Positions 1 to 25,729 of a DNA stretch of 39,629 nt are shown one piece after another. The position numbers and the translations under genes are program-made. The number at the start of each line of letters is the position of its first letter. The stretch's first letter is position 1. The notes under the pieces were generated by a model. It worked only from the letters and a program-made list of their open reading frames with translations, searched no databases and had not been told where the DNA came from. The stretch comes from Candidatus Thalassarchaeum sp. (GTDB lineage: Archaea > Thermoplasmatota > Poseidoniia > Poseidoniales > Thalassarchaeaceae): NCBI GenBank assembly GCA_022451235.1, contig JAKUOA010000004.1:3366-42994 (forward strand), written 5' to 3'.

Positions 1-1477
1 CAGGTTTACGTTTACCTTGGAGATATTCTGATACTCAAACCACTCTAGGACAAATGTGGGTCGAATCACTTAGGCAAGCCTCACACCGTAGAGGCGAACA
101 TTCTGAAGATTCACCTTGGTTATCTTCGGAAGATGACAATCAACCTCATCCACTAAACTCAGAAAGAGGCCTTGATAGAATACTCAATCCTGCTTTACTT
201 CATTATGATGGATGGCTAAGAGCCGAGCAAGAAGGCCGCCCGAAAATGGGCATCAATGTATACCACCACCCTGACTGTCTAATCAGCGAAAATATAGATG
301 AAAATGTACTGCATTCTCCACTCGTACGCCAAACCATGTTGCACGAAGCAGCAACTGAAGATAGGGTGGCTGAGATAGAAATAATCTCAAGGTTGGAAAC
401 AGGAGCAAGAATACGACTAGCACCTCATAGATTATCTAAAATCGACTCCTGCCCTCGTCGGAATTGGTTTGAGACAAGAGGGGGGTTGAAACCAGACCCT
501 ATATCCTCCTCTAATCAACTACTCGACGAGGACAACGATTCTCGTTCTGCTCCCCAACAGAATTGGGATTGATTGTACACAGGATGTTTGAGGTTGGAAT
601 TGGTAACCCCGGCCCAGTAGGTGATCAACCATCAAAACCTCTTCCAACAACCTGGGCAACTCCTGTTGATAGTCGCTTATTGGATTATGAATTGATGGAC
701 GAAGTATTCTCAGAATTGCTACCAATGGGAGTTGATGTCGAGAAAACTACAGAGATTGTTGCATTGATTTTGCAGAGAATTGAAGCAGGTCATATTGGAA
801 GATTATCAAATGCAGAAATTATCGGAGGCGAAAGGGTTGAGGGATTACGAACTGAATATCCATTCACCATTTCAAATTCAATCTTCTTCGATTCTGTATC
901 TCGAACTAGATGGGCGCCTGATGGCCAACAAAACCTCGCCCAAATTGAAAACGCATTTGTCGATATGGATGGTTCAATCGACCTCGTATTATGTTCAACT
1001 CACGAAGATGGTTCCTCTTCGATTCGCCCAATTGATCTGAAAACCGAACAGGCGGAGACTGTATTATCTGGCTCAGGAAAATTAGTCGATGCTTACGGAA
1101 ACACCTCTACTTCACCCGCCAATGATGCAGAACTGGATATGTTGGAACATCACCGATTACAACTTGCATTGTATCACCGAGCCTTGGAGAAGATGGAGGC
1201 CGGACGGCCAGAAGGGCAGCGACGTCGAGTAGAGAGGCCGGCAATTCTTGTCGGTGTTTCTGGTCGTCTAGTAATTTATCCTGAAGAAATGTTCGCAGCA
1301 GCACAATCGGACTTAGATGAAATTCTTGCAACTGCTGCGCGTATGGAGTTGGCCACAGAATTGCCATTAGCAGAATTCCAAAGAAGACCTGCAACAGAGG
1401 CCCATGTATGCAAAATATGTCCGTTCAGTCGAGGAGATTTGCCAATATGTGGTCCTCTCCCAGAACTCAGCACTTAA
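1..1477 (+). CDS. 3' part of a UvrD/AddA-like helicase-nuclease with C-terminal PD-(D/E)XK nuclease and Fe-S 'staple'; split by a 1-nt frameshift at ~552-555
   Basis: The frame of ORF 54..572 is open from the window edge and holds 'HRLSKIDSCPRRNWF'. ORF 563..1477 holds RecB-family motifs GLIVHRMFE, TEYPF, GSIDLV, IDLKT, QLALY and CKICPF...PIC. One extra C in the CCCC run at 552-555 joins them (…SAPPTELGLIVH…). The helicase part is inferred and lies outside the window. Confidence 0.7.
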
Positions 1478-3711: not shown

Positions 3712-4437
3712 TCATTCGGGTTTAGTTCCGTCAGCTAGGCGTATGCATTTTGCTGGTACTCCACCCCATACTTCTCCGGCTGGGATATCAGTCCATTTTG
3801 GTAAAACTGCCCGATTAGCAACGACTGCTCCTTCACCGATTGTACATCCAGGTTGAACAGTCGAGTTTCCTCCAATTAGGGCACCATTTCCTATTTTTAC
3901 GGGGGCCATAACCAACTCTCCTTTCTCTACCAAATGGGCGTTAATGATTGCATTTCCTCCGATTACTACACCATCCCCTAGGACAACTGATCCAGCATCA
4001 TTTAGATGGGGGGAATTAATCTGACAACCGGCACCAATCTTCGCGCCTGCCATGCGATAGTAAATCGTACCAACAAAAGAAGGAACTAAGATTGGCAAGA
4101 ATAGTATCGCAACTCTATGGAATACCATTGACCAAGCCCATTGAATTGTAACAAATGAACGAAGAGGGTATCTGCCTGGCTCTAGCCGAGGCCGGAATAA
4201 TCCACCTAGCAATCCCGACATCAATACTAGGGTAATTCCCCAAATCACACAAGCTAATCCTAGAGATATACCAGTGCCGACTAATTCCAACCAATTTGCT
4301 TGGTCAACTAGGTATGCCCTAGCCTCAAGAAACATCCAAACACCAGGGATAGAGGCAATTCCAACAATAATTCCAAGGAATGGAATAATCAGAAAAGTCA
4401 ACAAATTTTGAACAACCTCAAACGACTTCAGGTGCAC
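3712..4437 (-). CDS. membrane-anchored hexapeptide-repeat (left-handed beta-helix) acyltransferase
   Basis: Two to three N-terminal hydrophobic helices, then GAKIGAG, VVLGDGVVIGGNA, VKIGNGALIGGNSTVQPGCTIGEGAVV and the terminal WGGVPAK motif. Confidence 0.85.
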   Translation of the reverse strand: MHLKSFEVVQNLLTFLIIPFLGIIVGIASIPGVWMFLEARAYLVDQANWLELVGTGISLGLACVIWGITLVLMSGLLGGLFRPRLEPGRYPLRSFVTIQWAWSMVFHRVAILFLPILVPSFVGTIYYRMAGAKIGAGCQINSPHLNDAGSVVLGDGVVIGGNAIINAHLVEKGELVMAPVKIGNGALIGGNSTVQPGCTIGEGAVVANRAVLPKWTDIPAGEVWGGVPAKCIRLADGTKPE

Positions 4438-4518
4438 ACCCCGCCTTTGGTCTCGGTGAGTCAGTCATCAATTTTGGCCTGTCGGCAGAATCAAGACATT
4501 ACTGAATGCCGACATAAT

Positions 4519-5652
4519 ATGGCTCAGGCTTGTGGCATGCTAGGCGATGGTTCACCTACGGTGAAAATCCACCATCTAGTCAAAGCACCAGAAAATACAG
4601 CTGAGTCTATTGCACGTCGCGAATCTTGGGACGCAAAGAAGCCGGCGACGGTCTATGTAACGCCTGAGCGAATGCCAGACGGAACACCCTGTCAAGCAGC
4701 AACGGTAATCTTGCGTACTCGTGGCTGTGCTTGGTGGTGGAAATCGGGTTGTACTTTCTGTGGCTACTTCAACGATGTTCGCGATGACATAACTACAGAT
4801 GACCTGTTTGCTCAGTGGGAGGATGCAAAAAATCAGACTAATGATTTCGAAGGATGCTCTATGGTCAAGGTGTATACATCAGGCACCTTCTTTGAGGATC
4901 AAGAGAATCCAGTAGAATGGCAACAGCACGTTCTGAAAGAGACGCATGATATGGGGTTACATCTTGTAGTCGAAGCCCAAGCCCACATGTGCAAGCCAGA
5001 GAAATTAGAGTTCCTTGCTAAGCATCATCCAGGATGTACTGTAGCCATTGGGCTTGAGGCCTACGATGACGCAGTACTTCGGTTTCATGTCAACAAAGGT
5101 TTCTCCACAAAAACATGGAGGAAGGCCGTAGAAGATCTTCGAAGAAACAACCTTCGCGTCAAAACCTATCTGATTTTCAAGCCTCCATTTATGAGTGAAG
5201 GCGATGCATTGAATCACACATCGAAGTGGCTTGTCGATGTCGCGCCACTTTCCGATGAAGTATCAATAAATCCAATGAATATACAGAATCGAACAATTGT
5301 CGACCGATTGTTCAGGAATCGAGAATACCGCCCTCCATGGCTATGGTCTCTAATCGAAATGATTCAACGTACTCACGAAGAGACGGCAGAACACGACTCT
5401 CGTATTATCGTACATCCAACTGCAGGAGGAAAGATTCGTGGAGCCCACAATTGTGGTTCTTGCGACAAACATGTAGTCGCTGCTATCGAACGATACTCGG
5501 TTTCTCGAAATCTAGCTGAATTCAAAGGATTAGAATGCGAATGCAAAGCGATTTGGAGAGCAGAGATCGCCTCTGACCTCAGTCTCCCCACTCCTCTCGG
5601 CACTGGTCGAGATAGGCGTGGCAACCGCGTAGACCTAATGCGCGCTCCTTGA
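4519..5652 (+). CDS. archaeosine biosynthesis radical SAM protein RaSEA (TIGR01210-like)
   Basis: ILRTRGCAWWWKSGCTFCGY, KVYTSGTF, IGLE, KPPF, YRPPWLWS, RGAHNCGSCD, CECK. The start is probably ATG 4519 or 4537, because the 4408 start overlaps the divergent gene. Confidence 0.88.
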   Translation: MAQACGMLGDGSPTVKIHHLVKAPENTAESIARRESWDAKKPATVYVTPERMPDGTPCQAATVILRTRGCAWWWKSGCTFCGYFNDVRDDITTDDLFAQWEDAKNQTNDFEGCSMVKVYTSGTFFEDQENPVEWQQHVLKETHDMGLHLVVEAQAHMCKPEKLEFLAKHHPGCTVAIGLEAYDDAVLRFHVNKGFSTKTWRKAVEDLRRNNLRVKTYLIFKPPFMSEGDALNHTSKWLVDVAPLSDEVSINPMNIQNRTIVDRLFRNREYRPPWLWSLIEMIQRTHEETAEHDSRIIVHPTAGGKIRGAHNCGSCDKHVVAAIERYSVSRNLAEFKGLECECKAIWRAEIASDLSLPTPLGTGRDRRGNRVDLMRAP

Positions 5653-5675: not shown

Positions 5676-5742
5676 CAACGCTTAAGGGCGAATCTTCAGT
5701 GGTCCACCCGTCCACGATGTGTTGTGGACTAGTGGTGTCTAA

Positions 5743-6000
5743 ATGAAGAATGATGACGGATTTCTACAAGGCGAGAACGAACCTGCGGCTTCGAAGGTGG
5801 TAATTGTTGGAGCGTTAGTCTCCTCTCTAATCTTCATGGTGATATACAGCATTCTGTATCCAGGACAAGATTATCCTGTTCTTTCTGATTTCGAGACCTT
5901 CGGTTCTCTGAATGGAGGGATCTGGTTCTTCATACTTGGAGCAATATTCGGAATGTTCTCGATAGTTGCGACGATGATTACGGAGGCAACTCGTGAGTGA
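5743..6000 (+). CDS. small two-TM membrane protein, probably co-transcribed with the downstream CcoN-like gene
   Basis: 85 aa with two hydrophobic segments; its stop overlaps the GAGGTGA SD of the next gene. Confidence 0.75.
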   Translation: MKNDDGFLQGENEPAASKVVIVGALVSSLIFMVIYSILYPGQDYPVLSDFETFGSLNGGIWFFILGAIFGMFSIVATMITEATRE

Positions 6001-6010
6001 GGTGATTGTG

Positions 6011-7663
6011 ATGTCTGAGATTCTAACTACTCTGGCCATTTTTTGGCTCTCTGCGCTAATTTTCTATATTCTAGTCCACAGAGGATTGTGGATATTCTCC
6101 GATGTAGCACGAACTATGGGGATGTTCATGCTTGAGAAAGCCCTAGGCCCGGGAATCGACTTGGTTGAGGGCCGTTCAGGTTCTGCTGCAAGAGCATGGA
6201 TTATGCAATCGGTTCTATGGATGATGGTCGGTGGTCTATTCACCTTTGAGGGAATGTGGCTTGCACATGACCCGACCGCACTTCATTCACTTGGCGCATG
6301 GGGATACGACCCAACTGCCGAGACTCTAGCAGCAACAGGTAAGGCTGTTACCGCATTTGGTGGAATAAGCATGGCACTAATCGGTTGTGGCCTACACATC
6401 CTTCCCAAGTTATTGGGCACAGAACTTGCGAGTGAAAGAAATGGAACCTTGGTCTCATTCCTTTACTCTGGCGGGGTTTTCGTCACTTTGATTGGTTCCC
6501 ACGATCCGGTTATTCTTGGATTCAAGGTTCTGGTTATTGGAACCGGAATACATATTTTGGCAATGACAGCCATCGTCATCAACCAATTAATCACCGTAGC
6601 TAGCCGTGCTGACTCAATTCCGATGCCAGCATGGCTGATCCTTCTAGGTTTGATGTCTGAATCATTCAATATAATTGCTGGAATTTCAACCGGTACAATT
6701 GAGGATGGAAATGGCCAGTGGTTGATGTACAGATTACAGGGAAGCGGATTCTTCTTCCTTTCATTATCAGGTATTGTATTGTATGCATCTAGCGTTGCTT
6801 CCGGTAATGCACTCTGGTCTCGAACACTAGTTGGTGCAACATTGCTCGGTGGCCTGTTTACATTGAACCCGTTTGGTGCAAACCACGGAACCCTAGTTGC
6901 AGATTTATTCGGCCTTGATGCCGGAGAGTTGGCTATGTCCACAAATGACACAGTGATAGTAACCTTCCTAATGGCGCTTGCCTCAGTACCGGTAATCGCT
7001 TTCGTTGCAAATGCTATGCTAACCATTCGAGATAGTTCGTCTCCGGGTACTGCTGGTCTAGCCGAGATTAATCTTGGATTACTGGCCATGATTCCGGTAT
7101 TCATCGGCTCACTGTTTGTTCAAACCGATGCAGTATCGGGAACTAATGCAATCTCTGGACTTTCGTGGACAATCGAAGAAATGAGCCGATGGGCAGTATT
7201 GGTGCCACTATCACTTGGTTCAGTACTTGCTCTCTATCCATCAATTACCGGGCGACAATTGGCGTCCGCTGAGCGCGCCCGAACCGCGTTTTGGTTGATG
7301 GGCGCTGCAGTTTTGCTTGGATTAATGCTCAATTTGACTTCCAGCGCTATCGACATGGCTCTCTTAGATGCTGGTGTAGAAGATTCATCTAGTCTCTCTC
7401 ACGAACTTTCAGTGGCCGCTTCTGTAATCTTCTACTTCGCTGTAGTTGCGATGATTCTACACTGTCTAAATATGGTAAGCGGGCTATTCCGTGGCGAGAT
7501 TGTCGGAGAAGATACCGAGGTTGCCTCATCTATCGAGATTGAAACCTACAACCTTGCATCTGCTACAAGCGTCTCTCGAATCCTTGCCTCTGGTGCTGGA
7601 ATGGACACAATGGTAGTGCCAGTGGGCGAATCAGACGAGAAGGGCTCAGCAACTGATTTGTAA
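6011..7663 (+). CDS. polytopic membrane protein, degenerate cbb3-type heme-copper oxidase subunit I (CcoN)-like
   Basis: About 13 hydrophobic helices. Segments AVTAFGG, ILPKLLGTELASER, QWLMYRLQGSGFFF, NALWSRTL, WTIEEM and LYPSITGRQLASAERARTAFWL are colinear with CcoN as I recall it, but the ligand His residues are mostly absent. ATG 6011 follows a GAGGTGA SD. Confidence 0.65.
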   Translation: MSEILTTLAIFWLSALIFYILVHRGLWIFSDVARTMGMFMLEKALGPGIDLVEGRSGSAARAWIMQSVLWMMVGGLFTFEGMWLAHDPTALHSLGAWGYDPTAETLAATGKAVTAFGGISMALIGCGLHILPKLLGTELASERNGTLVSFLYSGGVFVTLIGSHDPVILGFKVLVIGTGIHILAMTAIVINQLITVASRADSIPMPAWLILLGLMSESFNIIAGISTGTIEDGNGQWLMYRLQGSGFFFLSLSGIVLYASSVASGNALWSRTLVGATLLGGLFTLNPFGANHGTLVADLFGLDAGELAMSTNDTVIVTFLMALASVPVIAFVANAMLTIRDSSSPGTAGLAEINLGLLAMIPVFIGSLFVQTDAVSGTNAISGLSWTIEEMSRWAVLVPLSLGSVLALYPSITGRQLASAERARTAFWLMGAAVLLGLMLNLTSSAIDMALLDAGVEDSSSLSHELSVAASVIFYFAVVAMILHCLNMVSGLFRGEIVGEDTEVASSIEIETYNLASATSVSRILASGAGMDTMVVPVGESDEKGSATDL

Positions 7664-14731: not shown

Positions 14732-15261
14732 CAGCCCACCCAGTCGATAACATCCTCAGGGCTAGTCGGTTTGAAGCCATCTGAAATCCAATTGAGAATA
14801 TTTGCGACAATTACTTCAGGCCCATCTTTCGAAGTGTCGAACTCAACCCAAGGAGCGTCGTTTTCCTTTTCATTCCAAGCACCACCAAGTAATTCCCACT
14901 CAACATTTGCCTCCACCTTTGGCTGAGGATAACCTCGTTCGTTTAGGCGCCCTCGAATAATTTCTGGCTCGCATCGCAAAAGCACAACCGCATCTACAGG
15001 GAGATTGTGAGATAAATGCCCGTCGATCAGTTCCGCCTTCAGTGGAGCAGTCTGCCATTTTTGATTTATGTATCGTAATAGAATCCCCATGTCAACCGGA
15101 TGGGCTCCATCGGTTACATCAACCTCCTCAAGAGCACCTGCTTGCTGAGCCAATTCTTCGATGTTTGAGATGCTCATGCCATGTGAAGAAAGTAAGCCTG
15201 CGAGGGTCGATTTACCTGTGCCAGGGGTGCCTGAGAGAGCCAGACGGTAGGTGTCTTCCAC
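14731..15261 (-). CDS. AK6/Fap7-family adenylate kinase
   Basis: SGTPGTGKST, IDGHLSH, VLLRCEP…RLNERGY…KVEANVE. Confidence 0.88.
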   Translation of the reverse strand: MEDTYRLALSGTPGTGKSTLAGLLSSHGMSISNIEELAQQAGALEEVDVTDGAHPVDMGILLRYINQKWQTAPLKAELIDGHLSHNLPVDAVVLLRCEPEIIRGRLNERGYPQPKVEANVEWELLGGAWNEKENDAPWVEFDTSKDGPEVIVANILNWISDGFKPTSPEDVIDWVG

Positions 15262-15344
15262 ATATTCACGGGCGGGCCATTAACCCAAGAATACTCCGCG
15301 TCGGGAGCGTAACATTGACCCATCGAATGTATCACCGGCTTTTC

Positions 15345-16484
15345 ATGAGTGATACCGAGGCCGGCCATGTAAGCGTACTTGGAGCGTTTTCTCCAACAGA
15401 AAATAAGCTAAACATTCTACTTCTTGCAGTACCCGTAACCTGCTATTTTGCTTACGTTTCTCATGATGAGTCGATGGCATTCTTCGCTTCACTGGTCGCA
15501 ATCATGCCTCTTGCCTTCTTGATGGGCAGGGCTACTGAAGAAATTGCGCTCTACACCTCAGAATCATTAGGTGGATTACTGAATGCAACTTTTGGAAATG
15601 CGGCTGAGATGATTATTGCTCTACTAGCAATCTACGCAGCATCTCAAGCAGCCTCTGGCAGTGATACAGAGACACTAATGGTTGGACTAGTGCAGGCCAG
15701 TCTAATCGGTAGTATTCTCGGAAATCTATTACTCGTCATGGGCCTCGCATTTTTGTGGGGTGGAATCAATTATTCTGAGCAGAAATTCTCTGATACACAG
15801 GTGAGTTCCAATGGTTCCCTGATGTTGTTAGCGATGATTGTACTCATCATTCCAACCGTATTCAACTCAACCGTTGGTGGTACCGAAGGCGAGAAAGGAG
15901 TTGAGCAACTAAGCCATATCGCGGCAATTGTTTTGCTATTACTATACGGATTATTCCTATTCTTCCAGTTCAAGTCCCACGTCGATCTATTCGCAACAGA
16001 GACGCATCATCACGAGGCTCCTGAAATGACTAAGAAAGATGCAATTATTCTTCTCGTCGTAGCAACTATCCTAGTATCTTGGATGGCAGAGATTCTAGTC
16101 CACTCAGTCGAGTATGCGGCTGATGATTTGGGACTACCTCACTTATTCATCGGGGTAATTTTGCTACCACTATTCGGTAACGCAGCTGAGCACTTTACTG
16201 CTGTAGTAGTGGCTGGTAAGGATAAGATGGACCTGTCATTCGCAATCTCAATGGGTTCATCCACACAAATTGCGGTATTCGTTGCTCCAGTAATGATTCT
16301 CGTTGCTTGGGCGATGAACGTACCACTAACCTTTGAATTCGGAATGCTAGAAACTGTCGCGGCTTTCCTTTCTGTACTGATAGTCAATGTTATCGCAGCT
16401 GATGGTAAATCAAACTGGTTGGAAGGAGCATTGTTGCTCGGAACCTATGTTGTTCTTGGTGCAGCCTTCCTAGTACATCCATAA
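15345..16484 (+). CDS. cax: Ca2+/H+ antiporter (CaCA family)
   Basis: Alpha repeats LNATFGNAAE and GNAAEH, GSSTQIA, SNWLEG. The start is probably ATG 15345; the 15042 extension overlaps the AK6 gene. Confidence 0.93.
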   Translation: MSDTEAGHVSVLGAFSPTENKLNILLLAVPVTCYFAYVSHDESMAFFASLVAIMPLAFLMGRATEEIALYTSESLGGLLNATFGNAAEMIIALLAIYAASQAASGSDTETLMVGLVQASLIGSILGNLLLVMGLAFLWGGINYSEQKFSDTQVSSNGSLMLLAMIVLIIPTVFNSTVGGTEGEKGVEQLSHIAAIVLLLLYGLFLFFQFKSHVDLFATETHHHEAPEMTKKDAIILLVVATILVSWMAEILVHSVEYAADDLGLPHLFIGVILLPLFGNAAEHFTAVVVAGKDKMDLSFAISMGSSTQIAVFVAPVMILVAWAMNVPLTFEFGMLETVAAFLSVLIVNVIAADGKSNWLEGALLLGTYVVLGAAFLVHP

Positions 16485-17488: not shown

Positions 17489-17860
17489 CTATGATTCGAG
17501 GATATTGACTTCGATGTTACCATCCTTTAGTCGAGTTTCATAGATTTCCAAATCTTTCTGTTTGCTGAATTTCCCAACCATTTTCCCATAAGGAGGGAAT
17601 ATTGGAAACGGAGACCATTCAATTAATTCCCCAGTTTCTATATTGTGAGTTGTTTGGTGTAGTGGACATGTAATACAATCATCCTTCACCTTACCACCGT
17701 AGGCGAGAGGCCATCTCATATGTCTGCAGAGAGCTTCTGTAGCATAGTACCCATCGTCTTCATCAAATCGACCAACGAGAATTATCTTTTTTCCAACGGT
17801 CAGCATTTTTTTCTTACCCGGTTTCAACTTTGATGATTTAATTGCGATTTTCCAAGCCAA
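17489..17860 (-). CDS. soluble Rieske [2Fe-2S] ferredoxin
   Basis: CRH…CPLH ligand boxes; GAGGTGA SD before a TTG start. Confidence 0.9.
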   Translation of the reverse strand: MAWKIAIKSSKLKPGKKKMLTVGKKIILVGRFDEDDGYYATEALCRHMRWPLAYGGKVKDDCITCPLHQTTHNIETGELIEWSPFPIFPPYGKMVGKFSKQKDLEIYETRLKDGNIEVNILES

Positions 17861-22459: not shown

Positions 22460-25400
22460 ATGCGAGAAGTCAGAGATTTTGGGAAAGTTGCTGACGTTCT
22501 ACTCCCTCGTAGTTTCAAATTGCATGCCGCAGTCTTAGCAATTAGTCTATTCATGATTCCCGGATTAATCGCCAGCCTCACACCCATTGATGTCCAGTCC
22601 TACGACATGGAGTCTCCTGAATTAACCGCAAACCAGGTTGTAAATGAGCAATTCGAAGCGGCTGAGAAGACACATGGATTTGCGGTATCGGTGAGGAGTA
22701 ATGAGGCCATTTTGGCAGGTAACTCTGCCCCTCACTTCATTGATTCAGGAGACATAGATTATGCCAATCTTCCTCACCCTTCCGAACGCCTACCCTTCCA
22801 AGGTACTAGTGCAGGTTTGGTGGGAGATGATATTCCGATTGGTGGTATCCTTAATCTCACAGTACTCAGGGAGATAGAATCGAAAACAGAAATTGCAAGT
22901 TCTCACTATCTCTTGAATTACACAAGGCCTCTCGTAACAGAACTCACTGGAACAGGATTCATGGGGCCTATGTCTCTTCCCGATATTCTTCGTGCTTTCA
23001 TGGCCGGAGAGTCATTGTTAACCCAACCGACGGTGAATGTGTTCGGCATCCCACAACCTCCAAAGACAAATTGGGAAGATTGCGGAGTCCTAGAATGTCT
23101 GACGTACGATGATCCAAACGTTACCCAAGATCACATCGACTTAGCAGCCCACAGAATGATAATGAATTCTGATGGAGCTATGTTGAGATGGTTTTCGACA
23201 GATAGAGGTTTTACTCACGATGAAAACAGTACTCTGATTGGACCAATAGGAGGAACAATTCGAGAAGACGGAACCTTCGACGAAGATGTTACTTGGGGTC
23301 CAGGCCGATGGTCATCATCAACAACATGGATATTGATTCAACTCAGTCGTACTGATTTAGAAGAGAATGGAATTACATACTATTGGGCGGATGCAGAAAA
23401 TCAAAGGAATGGCTACGAATTTGAGGGATTGAATTTAGTTACAACACCACCTCAGTATTCTGTAACTGATTGCAGGGAAGCGAAGGAATCTGGAGATGAA
23501 CTTTGCAGCTTTGAATGGGCAATAATCGATCTCGAAAAGCAAATGCGTACAACCGATCAACTGTCAGTTACCTTTTCCATTAACGAAGGTGTTAATGTAG
23601 AATTGAATCGTGAATTGCTTGAGTCAAGTCTTCTGCTTATTGCAATGGCCATTGCGATTACTATTCTCTTGTGGTTCAGTCTCAGAAGAGCCTCAGATGT
23701 CGTGATTGTGGGAGCAACGCTACTTTTTGCTCTCCTTTGGATGCAAGGGTCAATCGGTTGGATGATGGTACTAGGAGAACGGTATGGATTCAAGATAATC
23801 AGCAAGAGCCAATTTTCCAATCTTCTTCCGATATTGGTAATTGCTCTCGGTATCGATGACAGTCTACACGCCCTACACAGATACAAGGAAGAAAGGAGAC
23901 AAGGAAGAACGCCCGAGCAATCTGCTCACGCCTCTCTATCCCGAGTCGGCAGAGCGATTATGCTTACATCATTCACAACCATGTCTGCGTTTGCTGCAAA
24001 CTTGACTTCTGATATCGCCGCTCTCCGCTCATTCGGTGTCGAGGCGGCGCTTGGAGTTGCGGCAGCTTTCATCCTAACAGGAATTTGGGCACCACTAATC
24101 AGAATGGATTGGGATAAATACCTTCGAGAGAAAGGAAAGTTACCAGAAGAAGAAGAAGGCATAGTTCACATGATAAGTGAAGAAAAATTAGTTAAAATTG
24201 CAGATAATTCTTCAAAGAATTCGGCCGTTTTACTTGTGTTAATTATGGCAATAACAGCCGTTGCAGTTCCAATGATGCTGAGTCTTGAAGGGGACTTCAA
24301 GGTCGAAGATTTCCTCGATGAAGAATCAGATTTCGCCCAGGCCGTTGAGTTAGTCAATACCAGATTTAGTGACGAGGGAGAGCCGGCGGTAGTAATTATT
24401 GAAGGTGATATGTTAGATCCTAGGGTCTTCGCAGCGATTCAGGAAACTAGGGACAATATGGCTGAACCGAGTCCTAATGATCCCGGAAAATACACCAAGA
24501 CTCCGCTAGGCACCCCTGAACTGCATGCAGTCGATGAGTTAGTTTGGGCGGCTAAGGCTAGTATGTTCGCCAATGTTACGCCATTTGTCGAAGCAGGTTG
24601 GGAATCCGACACTCTTGAATGCGACACACTACTCACAGGATTGCCCGATGATAACGACAGAGACTGTTTAAGATTCATGTATGGATTCGTGTATGTCTAT
24701 GGAGTTCCAGAAGGAGGCTACATTCCACATATTCCTCCATCATTGACGGCGCTAAATATCGCTCCTAATTGCGAAATAGACCCTGAAATGGTACATCTTT
24801 GTCGTGATGGTAGCATTCCAGAATATCCTCGAATGACACTTCGTTGGGGTATTGCAAATCCCGAGCAATTTATCGTTGTTGAACAGGTTTTAGCGGAGTT
24901 GGAAATGGATATGCAGCCATTCCAAGAATTAGCAGCACAAGGCCTATCTGAAAGAGCAGATATTAGCTCGGCGACTGAAGAATATCCAGTTACCTGGGCG
25001 ATTGCTACTGGCGACCCTGTGACTCGTTTCGTCGCTGCAAATAGTATGCAGAACCAACTACAAGGGACATTGGTTCTAGGGGTTCTATTCTGTCTTATCA
25101 CACTCTGGTGGGGGTTCCGAAAGGTCGAATATGGATTTGATGATTATTCTATTCGAGATCTTGCAGTATCTTCACCGATAATTATTGGAATAACTGGATA
25201 TGTATACCTGACAGTTAGCGTTAATCTTGCTATTGCCATTGCAATCCTTCTGGTTATTGGCGCTGGATATTGGGGCACTAGATCTCTCTCGACTGCAATC
25301 TTTACCACAATCCCAATTGTAGTTGTAATAATTTGGCTATACGCGATAATCGCAGCTGCTGGATATGGGTTGAACATGGTTACAGTAGCAATTGCCGCGA

Positions 25401-25729
25401 TGAGTCTAGGTGTAGGAATAGACTACGTTATCCACGTGGTTGAGAGGTATCGAGAGGAACGTGCAACCGGTGCTGATGTAGAGACCAGCATCAAGGCGAT
25501 TGGAGGAGCTGCAGGCCTTGCCCTGTTTGGATCAGCCGTCTCAGATGTAACAGGTTTCCTAATCATAACCCGCTCTGCAATGGGCTTCTTTGCAAGTTTC
25601 GGTCTGTTCTGTGCTGCAATGATTGGGCTTTCCTTATTCGCCAGCCTAGTCGTTACACCAGCAATGCTTGGTGCAATGTCTCGAACACGGAGCAACGAGA
25701 CTCAGCAGGTTGAAGCAGTTGGGGCTTGA
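22460..25729 (+). CDS. MMPL/RND-superfamily transporter
   Basis: Two TM bundles with ALGIDDSLH and LGVGIDYVIH motifs; large acidic extracytoplasmic loops with Cys pairs. Confidence 0.9.
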   Translation: MREVRDFGKVADVLLPRSFKLHAAVLAISLFMIPGLIASLTPIDVQSYDMESPELTANQVVNEQFEAAEKTHGFAVSVRSNEAILAGNSAPHFIDSGDIDYANLPHPSERLPFQGTSAGLVGDDIPIGGILNLTVLREIESKTEIASSHYLLNYTRPLVTELTGTGFMGPMSLPDILRAFMAGESLLTQPTVNVFGIPQPPKTNWEDCGVLECLTYDDPNVTQDHIDLAAHRMIMNSDGAMLRWFSTDRGFTHDENSTLIGPIGGTIREDGTFDEDVTWGPGRWSSSTTWILIQLSRTDLEENGITYYWADAENQRNGYEFEGLNLVTTPPQYSVTDCREAKESGDELCSFEWAIIDLEKQMRTTDQLSVTFSINEGVNVELNRELLESSLLLIAMAIAITILLWFSLRRASDVVIVGATLLFALLWMQGSIGWMMVLGERYGFKIISKSQFSNLLPILVIALGIDDSLHALHRYKEERRQGRTPEQSAHASLSRVGRAIMLTSFTTMSAFAANLTSDIAALRSFGVEAALGVAAAFILTGIWAPLIRMDWDKYLREKGKLPEEEEGIVHMISEEKLVKIADNSSKNSAVLLVLIMAITAVAVPMMLSLEGDFKVEDFLDEESDFAQAVELVNTRFSDEGEPAVVIIEGDMLDPRVFAAIQETRDNMAEPSPNDPGKYTKTPLGTPELHAVDELVWAAKASMFANVTPFVEAGWESDTLECDTLLTGLPDDNDRDCLRFMYGFVYVYGVPEGGYIPHIPPSLTALNIAPNCEIDPEMVHLCRDGSIPEYPRMTLRWGIANPEQFIVVEQVLAELEMDMQPFQELAAQGLSERADISSATEEYPVTWAIATGDPVTRFVAANSMQNQLQGTLVLGVLFCLITLWWGFRKVEYGFDDYSIRDLAVSSPIIIGITGYVYLTVSVNLAIAIAILLVIGAGYWGTRSLSTAIFTTIPIVVVIIWLYAIIAAAGYGLNMVTVAIAAMSLGVGIDYVIHVVERYREERATGADVETSIKAIGGAAGLALFGSAVSDVTGFLIITRSAMGFFASFGLFCAAMIGLSLFASLVVTPAMLGAMSRTRSNETQQVEAVGA

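Follow-up and report, generated by a model that had tools for sequence, protein, structure and literature searches.

A window of 39,629 nucleotides from the genome of Candidatus Thalassarchaeum sp., the whole stretch of DNA analysed here, carries two overlapping genes, the second of which encodes a divergent member of the heme-copper oxidase (HCO) subunit-I superfamily that is nearest, in both sequence and fold, to the C-family (cbb3) subunit CcoN and to the nitric oxide reductase (NOR) subunit NorB. On a profile alignment this large protein, hereafter the window protein, lacks all six canonical His ligands of the superfamily, and in its protein family as a whole five of the six sites hold no His or hardly any. 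The large gene is present in single copy, evolves under strong purifying selection and occurs across one order of marine archaea, and its product is very probably a cofactor-less, non-redox HCO derivative. We put at even odds the explanation that best fits the observations as a whole, namely an oxidase-fold protein that has no cofactors and works via its cytoplasmic face and a track of buried polar residues.

Homology of the large protein to heme-copper oxidases

Taken alone, the window protein matches no Pfam or NCBIfam family at E <= 1, and a phmmer search against the PDB returned a chance match only. Homology was detected with a family profile, A1, which is based on an alignment of 26 sequences reaching down to 20% identity and including the divergent long forms of the family (hidden Markov model, HMM, of 625 positions). 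Its top five matches in the PDB are cbb3 CcoN chains (6xkw_n, 3mk7_A, 9g6b_A, 8smr_E and 9g83_t; E: 3e-15 to 5.9e-13; P. stutzeri 3mk7_A: 3.3e-15). The other 55 of the best 60 matches are calmodulin-type proteins, which match the EF-hand tail of the long forms, and no NorB chain is found among these 60. A narrower profile restricted to the transmembrane (TM) part, A2, built from 17 sequences that are mainly close relatives, has zero PDB matches at E <= 10, so that it is the divergent long forms of A1 that carry the CcoN sequence signal. The Pfam COX1 family (PF00115) is passed individually by three of the 26 A1 members (best E: 3.2e-11), with bit scores of 43.2 for P0135 and 42.0 for P0131 at a cut-off of 34.8. 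A precomputed PF00115 label on a further protein, P0117, was not reproduced by a fresh scan at E <= 10.

The fold gives a clearly corresponding picture. The AF2 model of the window protein (pLDDT: 80.8; pTM: 0.85) contains 13 TM helices, and Foldseek ranks 1 to 7 are all occupied by cbb3 CcoN chains (TM-score: 0.73-0.78; probability: 1.00), followed by ba3, NOR and aa3 chains; a CcoN match has an E-value of 6.5e-10 at a TM-score of 0.76. The COX1-fold similarity on which the sequence-only reading of this DNA had staked itself is thus what the structure search returned. VIA-align, which is independent of Foldseek, superposes 421 residues on 3mk7_A (Z: 35.5; 3.1 Å), with cNOR next at Z 32.7 and A-family, B-family and qNOR chains at Z 22.5-27.7. 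The top ten rows of this comparison are all HCO subunit I, and the unrelated fold at rank 11 reaches only Z 7.0. Structural look-alikes of the window protein in a protein atlas likewise include COX1 clusters.

Clustered at 90% and at 50%, the family comprises 313 homologs and 99 representatives, respectively. An A1 search of a collection of 5.8 billion entries gave 313 matches among 8000 scored candidates; it was saturated by close relatives and hence uninformative on outgroups or origin. Among the matches listed, the majority are unnamed and those with a name are all called 'hypothetical protein'; they derive from metagenome-assembled genomes (MAGs) labelled Thalassarchaeaceae, Euryarchaeota or Thermoplasmatota. 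The expectation that automated pipelines could miscount the window protein as a functional cbb3 oxidase was therefore not borne out: Pfam and NCBIfam miss it, and only some of the long forms (3/26) cross the COX1 threshold. As PF00115 usually returns only the genuine COX1 across 151 genomes of the order, standard annotation mostly misses the gene rather than miscounts it.

Loss of the heme and copper ligands

In P. stutzeri CcoN, we take H60 and H347 to be the ligands of the low-spin heme b, H345 that of heme b3, and H207, H257 and H258 those of CuB, with Y251 cross-linked to H207. The window protein was aligned to the rebuilt 625-position A1 HMM and compared with the printed 3mk7_A alignment, in which H207, H257, H258, H345 and H347 were counted directly; H60 sits one residue ahead of the start of the printed alignment and was mapped by contiguity. 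On this alignment the six sites are occupied by G116, R247, F294, G295, I394 and E396 (Table 1), and the loss of ligands claimed from the sequence held up. Residue frequencies were counted in 141 sequences, namely the window protein and 140 homologs of at least 500 amino acids (aa). Neither A1 nor A2 contains a His column that is invariant or reaches 90% conservation, and the family has no invariant His, Cys or Met column in either A1 or the 141-sequence census. An active-site Tyr is likewise missing from residues 277-295 (TM7) of the window protein, CcoN Y251 belonging to a segment that is inserted with respect to the family profile.

Other residues shared with CcoN are retained. CcoN W203 corresponds to W243 (138/141), S236 to S276 (141/141) and P256 to P293 (136/141), while the Asn of N340, invariant in the census, aligns to CcoN N289, presumably part of the cbb3 proton channel. 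The motif NPFGANHG, like the other motifs originally quoted, is present in the translation, but the His that it was said to preserve results from a misalignment. P293 aligns with P256, so neither CuB His of the H257/H258 pair is retained, and H298 of the motif aligns with CcoN Y261 and is therefore not a ligand. Two other His residues, H135 (6395-6397) and H490 (7460-7462), located close to where TM2 and TM12 are predicted to end on the cytoplasmic side, occur in 89% and 87% of the 141 sequences, respectively; they are not kept in the long forms and are thus family-restricted, as is a His at position 98 (89%).

The pattern of substitutions suggests that the large protein binds neither heme nor copper and carries out no redox chemistry, and would thus be an oxidase-fold pseudo-enzyme. 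With the residues that hold heme and copper lost, a role other than respiration is expected.

The two-gene module

Both open reading frames (ORFs) are as first described, and they share 8 nt. The Shine-Dalgarno-like GAGGTGAT, a putative ribosome-binding site for the large ORF, overlaps the TGA stop (5998-6000) of the small ORF. M7, which corresponds to ATG 6011, is kept in at least 90% of the A2 alignment, and the majority of the large-protein orthologs start there. The overlap of the small-ORF stop with GAGGTGAT and the position of the ortholog start point to a 550-aa product that is likely to begin at ATG 6011 and appears to be translationally coupled to the small ORF; the listed GTG start at 5993 probably needs correcting to this extent.

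The coupling of an 85-aa two-TM gene upstream, already noted from the sequence, is a conserved arrangement. An ortholog of the small gene lies directly upstream on the same strand in 15/15 loci (the window genome and 14 others, five of them from the sister family), encoding 85-113 aa and separated from the large gene by -22 to +15 nt. The small-protein orthologs, aligned as A3, share 24-81% identity and have E13, P14, S17, P45, G59-I60-W61, G66, G70 and I74 as invariant residues, G66xxxG70 being a motif of the helix-packing type. The small protein has no Pfam or PDB family; a FixP_N match (E: 0.37; 1/11 orthologs) and matches to Chs7 and MARVEL were discarded as chance. Prediction of a complex between the large (A1) and small (A3) proteins scored 0.01, 0.52 and 0.02 in three runs, relative to a mark of 0.32, a result that weighs on neither side of the question of binding.

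Table 1. Positions of the two genes and of the features of the window protein. Counts for individual sites are from the census of 141 sequences; TM, transmembrane.
Feature	Position	Strand	Remarks
Small ORF, 85 aa, two-TM protein	5743-6000	+	from the ORF list
Large ORF, 556 aa from GTG 5993 (probably 550 aa from ATG 6011)	5993-7663	+	CcoN-like HCO subunit-I homolog without ligands
Shine-Dalgarno-like GAGGTGAT	5999-6006	+	4 nt ahead of ATG 6011; read from the sequence
TM0, extra N-terminal helix, residues 9-30	6017-6082	+	helix of the model; outside the CcoN-aligned range 60-506
Conserved predicted-cytoplasmic segment, residues 31-63	6083-6181	+	invariant G31, F45, K49, A50
12-TM HCO subunit-I core, residues 60-506	6170-7510	+	VIA-align against 3mk7_A 8..467
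G116 at the CcoN H60 site (heme b)	6338-6340	+	G 103, S 23, His 0
R247 at the CcoN H207 site (CuB)	6731-6733	+	His 105, Arg 21, Lys 6, Gln 3
F294 at the CcoN H257 site (CuB)	within 6872-6877	+	F 91, V 22, L 17, His 0
G295 at the CcoN H258 site (CuB)	within 6872-6877	+	G 129, His 0
N340 (TM8), aligned to CcoN N289	7010-7012	+	Asn in 141/141; T344 aligns to T293
I394 at the CcoN H345 site (heme b3)	within 7172-7180	+	L 110, I 18, His 0
E396 at the CcoN H347 site (heme b)	within 7172-7180	+	V 53, L 42, E 13, His 5
C-terminal predicted-cytoplasmic motif, residues 521-545	7553-7627	+	invariant T525, G534, D538, T539
Acidic C-terminal tail	7628-7660	+	residues 501-556: 11 D+E against 2 K+R; in the long forms the EF-hand pair and SAP come after this point

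Selection, distribution and RNA-library contigs

The large ORF is intact and full length, and its dN/dS values of 0.070 and 0.056 relative to two same-genus orthologs show it to be under selection; the small gene shows values of 0.027-0.071 in closer pairs. Matches to A1 at E <= 1e-5 were obtained in 151/151 sampled genomes of the order, covering 22/22 genera, and at E <= 1e-100 in 148 of these genomes. Weaker matches come from two 380-contig assemblies, G121 (6.4e-87) and G143 (5.4e-28), and from G058, where the sole match covers the EF-hand part of the profile and the TM domain is unmatched. Across a sample of the whole phylum, matches occur in each of the two large families of the order (17/17 and 30/30, the latter including G058), and the family was found in none of 203 genomes outside the order, including 0/7 of the same class. 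According to the source labels of the homologs, the order is that of the Thalassarchaeaceae/Marine Group II. In one genome, G054, the full copy is accompanied by a further, partial TM-core match at a contig end (C31:2-1105; E: 3e-79; profile positions 126-463), which may be a paralog, MAG strain heterogeneity or an assembly duplicate.

Four marine RNA libraries yielded contigs over parts of both genes, and two of these contigs (X2 record 9, 5729-6142; X1 record 3, 5950-6127) bridge the junction between the genes. Positions 6562-7005 are uncovered in all four runs, a gap that is meaningless for contigs.

That the large gene is a decaying relic or a mis-called ORF without function is refuted by these selection and distribution data: its failure to match Pfam, NCBIfam or the PDB as a single sequence would suit a relic, but dN/dS is 0.056-0.070, intact forms of about 550 aa and long forms of 610-860 aa are maintained, homologs occur in 148/151 genomes of the order and down to 20% identity, and contigs were recovered from four RNA libraries, so that the chance of this being so is negligible.

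Gene neighbourhood

The 39.6-kb surroundings of the two genes form an archaeal housekeeping region. Upstream lies the gene for the archaeosine radical-SAM enzyme RaSEA (TIGR01210; Bitscore: 288) and downstream that of a YchF-related GTPase, followed further downstream by those of the ribosomal proteins L12/P1, L10/P0 and L1 and then by Spt5, FtsZ, Pus10, L21e, KsgA and PGK. The flanking genes are conserved, with the radical-SAM gene upstream in 12/12 of the loci read and the GTPase gene downstream in 11/12. The absence of CcoO and CcoP neighbours, as first stated, was confirmed: no CxxCH motif occurs in the nine genes between 3072 and 11212, and a search of the genome, which is 88% complete, for FixO (PF02433) and Cytochrome_CBB3 (PF13442) gave nothing at E <= 1.

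Several other genes of the region can be described. The RaSEA ORF (4408-5652) has a listed TTG start that overlaps a convergent hexapeptide-transferase gene (3712-4437). In L008, from the same genome, and in its ortholog L006 the Met-started ORF begins 37 codons further in, and the RaSEA start is therefore probably near 4519. A Na+/Ca2+ exchanger family protein of 480 aa (15042-16484) and a stand-alone Rieske [2Fe-2S] domain protein of 123 aa (17489-17860) are encoded 7-10 kb downstream, and a 1089-aa membrane protein of the MMPL/Patched/sterol-sensing-domain (RND-type) group is encoded at 22460-25729.

Cytoplasmic face, buried polar residues and the long forms

Both the extra N-terminal helix and the acidic tail reported from the sequence are real additions to the CcoN-aligned part of the protein (Table 1). 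Among the structures compared by VIA-align, the qNOR chains 3ayg_A and 6fwf_A align from model residues 10 and 7. The C-terminal motif is modelled with strands at 518-521 and 540-543 and a helix at 527-532, at a pLDDT of about 50-60. Lys and Arg residues of the loops are confined to the predicted inner loops, with none in the outer loops; this restriction, together with the CcoN topology as we take it to be, is the basis on which sides were assigned. Across the 26 A1 sequences, the mean top-residue frequency peaks at 0.74 in inner loop 6; loops 2 and 10 reach 0.63 and 0.61, outer loop 1 has 0.60, loop 0 has 0.58 and the C-terminal motif has 0.55. Within the membrane, conserved polar residues are buried at N197, T201, N340, T344, T393 and N493, and the invariant buried residues are N340, Y481, W69, W76, F85 and W89.

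In the sister family the orthologs (P0134-P0160) are longer, at 610-860 aa, with the TM core followed by a pair of EF-hands and then a C-terminal SAP (Rho_N-like) domain; P0160 has an additional long coiled-coil-like insert. Their loci are on the reverse strand at L002:1492-3660, L003:1501-3636, L004:1465-3705, L009:1501-3645 and L010:1492-3681. The long form thus combines an oxidase-fold membrane protein with modules for Ca2+ binding and, putatively, for nucleic-acid binding. Among the A1 members, SAP is found in 12/26 and the EF-hand pair in 11/26. The EF-hand part of the A1 profile (approximately positions 545-591) also matches one to three further open frames in each sister-family genome, with lengths of about 230-870 aa. 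These matches (in genomes of family f3; e.g. G026:C44:5322-5564 and G016:C20:10368-10628) fit the lineage-specific calcium-binding families that Meheust et al. (PMC9258230) noted.

These observations could be accommodated if the protein were a membrane anchor or signalling platform, in which the fold serves only as a stable 13-helix raft and the cytoplasmic parts would recruit or tether cytoplasmic partners or nucleic acid to the membrane; these parts are the amphipathic N-terminal segment, the C-terminal motif and the acidic tail, to which the sister family adds its EF-hand pair and SAP. The peak of conservation in the C-terminal motif and on the side predicted to be cytoplasmic, the SAP and EF-hand modules of the long forms and the conserved housekeeping neighbourhood would all suit such a role. 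However, the family of the window protein has neither EF-hand nor SAP and yet keeps its whole TM core at a dN/dS of about 0.06, and the invariant buried residues indicate that the TM core itself is constrained, so that we consider a platform improbable, although the best of the alternatives.

Our preferred reading, an oxidase-fold protein without cofactors that works via its cytoplasmic face and buried polar track, would locate function at the predicted cytoplasmic face, that is, in the segment after TM0, in loops 2, 6 and 10 and in the C-terminal motif, which probably folds back onto this face. The buried polar track would consist of S276, N340 and T344 (CcoN S236, N289 and T293) together with N197, T201, T393 and N493. 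The former proton-uptake path of the oxidase may survive as a gated, non-redox conduit for protons or ions, or as a sensor, assembled jointly with the small two-TM protein, and in the sister family it may be regulated through the cytoplasmic EF-hands (Ca2+) and SAP tail. Conduction or gating as the activity that was retained, as opposed to scaffolding alone, is a tentative proposal, which we hold to be less likely than not. Doubtful to a slightly greater degree is the full scenario, in which an ancestor of Marine Group II stripped a C-family oxidase or NOR subunit of its cofactors and fixed it as a lineage-defining core gene, to work as a conduit or sensor on what is left of the proton-uptake path, paired with a new two-TM protein; in the Poseidoniaceae this conduit or sensor would have become Ca2+-gated and tied through SAP to nucleic acid. 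The original suggestion of a repurposed oxidase scaffold is accordingly supported as far as a cofactor-less, functional protein is concerned; the transporter, chaperone and partner roles proposed with it are conjecture.

Several points weigh against this reading. The buried Asn and Thr residues may merely hold helices together, and the conduit idea is without direct support. The ligand equivalences rest on a profile-HMM alignment rather than a residue-level superposition, and the 141 sequences of the census are mainly close relatives from one family. His is found at the H207 site in 105 of these, so that metal or proton chemistry of some kind may persist in these members at the former CuB site, and the same position is variable in the long forms, with Lys or Arg in six and other residues in five of the 11 EF-hand-bearing members of A1. 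The neighbourhood of radical-SAM, YchF-type GTPase and ribosomal protein genes says nothing on transport, and since DNA carry-over is possible, the RNA contigs are weak support for expression.

Relationship to the genuine terminal oxidase

The genome also encodes an A-type oxidase in a COX2-COX1-COX3 operon, whose COX1 matches PF00115 with 472 bits, compared with no match for the window protein of the same superfamily and organism; with its COX2 and COX3 partners it is the real terminal oxidase. This COX1 gene (L001:1240-3567, reverse strand) encodes 775 aa, of which PF00115 covers residues 237-689 only, leaving an N-terminal extension of about 236 aa, and a COX3-like ORF overlaps its 3′ end. 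Across the order, a genuine COX1 was found by six-frame PF00115 search in 146/151 genomes, usually as the sole PF00115 match.

The window protein might then be an accessory subunit, assembly factor or supercomplex scaffold for this A-type oxidase, and packing of one HCO-shaped protein against another would be plausible. Both genes are near-universal in the order (148/151 at E <= 1e-100 and 146/151 by PF00115), but for this very reason their co-occurrence cannot discriminate between the hypotheses. They are furthermore never in one operon here, the large gene being on contig 26 and the A-type COX1 on contig 7, and five genomes contain the large-gene family without a COX1 match, which is weak evidence as these assemblies are 82-92% complete. 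We rate an accessory role as less probable still than a platform.

A redox enzyme, whether an oxidase or NO reductase, that uses non-canonical heme or metal ligands is very unlikely. The His that most homologs have at the H207 site and the family-restricted His residues at 135, 98 and 490 could be cited for it. Against these stand the low-spin axial, high-spin heme and two of the three CuB sites, which are G, F, G, L/I and V/L/E family-wide, the lack of invariant His, Cys or Met columns and of a Tyr in TM7, the lack of an electron-donor subunit, with no cytochrome c domain found in the genome, and the absence of the NOR motifs at 247-251 and 294-295, as follows from the comparison below.

Comparison with known systems

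The window protein shares with CcoN (3mk7_A) the 12-TM subunit-I fold and a set of motif positions, namely CcoN W203 in TM6, S236 in loop 6-7, P256 in TM7, N289...T293 in TM8 and P...GR...S...FW in loop 10-11. It differs in having all six His replaced on the profile alignment, in being without the TM7 Tyr and in the addition of the N-terminal helix, the cytoplasmic segment, the C-terminal motif and the acidic tail. Unlike cbb3 oxidases, it is encoded without CcoO, CcoP or CcoQ genes and has an unrelated two-TM partner gene instead, and unlike CcoN its family is an archaeal, order-restricted core gene. The fold is nearly as close to NorB and qNOR (4xyd_A, 3o0r_B, 3ayg_A and 6fwf_A), with cNOR at Z 32.7, and extra N-terminal helices are found in qNOR too, whereas the window protein has no His or Glu ligands for FeB. 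In the parts of Sousa et al. (2011; PMC3084760) that were available, the NOR motifs are given as H-X-Arom-X-E and H-H-X-Arom-Arom-X17-E; the corresponding sites of the window protein read R-L-Q-G-S (247-251) and F-G-A-N-H (294-298) and do not conform. The same sections state that sequences without six His were left out of the HCO database. With 550-556 aa the window protein exceeds the length of at least 400 residues given there, and it lacks the six His. By discarding such sequences, surveys of this design would, as far as these sections describe them, have left out a branch of this kind.

The closest parallel in the literature is provided by Meheust et al. (2022; PMC9258230), in the accessible passages of which a halobacterial hypothetical family, fam02696, is tied to HCO subunit I by HMM-HMM comparison. 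On that description both families are archaeal and lineage-restricted, with about 12 TM helices and without Pfam or KEGG annotation, but fam02696 belongs to another lineage, measures 405 aa and is reported beside cbb3/NorB genes, which the family of the window protein is not. Those passages also describe 199 Poseidoniales-specific families and Ca-binding modules. In these passages and the searchable part of the supplement the family of the window protein is not mentioned as HCO-like, and it may be listed there unannotated. The portion of a preprint by Murali et al. that was available describes new HCO families without the tyrosine, and does not report the loss of heme ligands, while in the excerpts of a paper on oxygen minimum zones (PMC13508795) Poseidoniales and cbb3 appear in unrelated passages. 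Full-text literature searches retrieved no earlier description of the large-protein family.

Implications

Few membrane enzymes have been studied as thoroughly as the heme-copper oxidases, whose superfamily is treated as being defined by the six His. The family described here is a scaffold that has outlived its cofactors under strong selection. Marine Group II is, according to the part of PMC6461757 available, one of the archaeal groups that are most abundant in the surface ocean, and the large gene is a near-universal gene of this group, found in essentially every Group II archaeon examined. COX1-domain matches on the long-form relatives are, as such, unsafe for inferring oxygen affinity. For marine microbiology the gene is a lineage marker, covered by contigs from four marine RNA libraries, and for bioenergetics the protein represents a natural 'apo' scaffold with which to ask what the oxidase fold does beyond redox chemistry.

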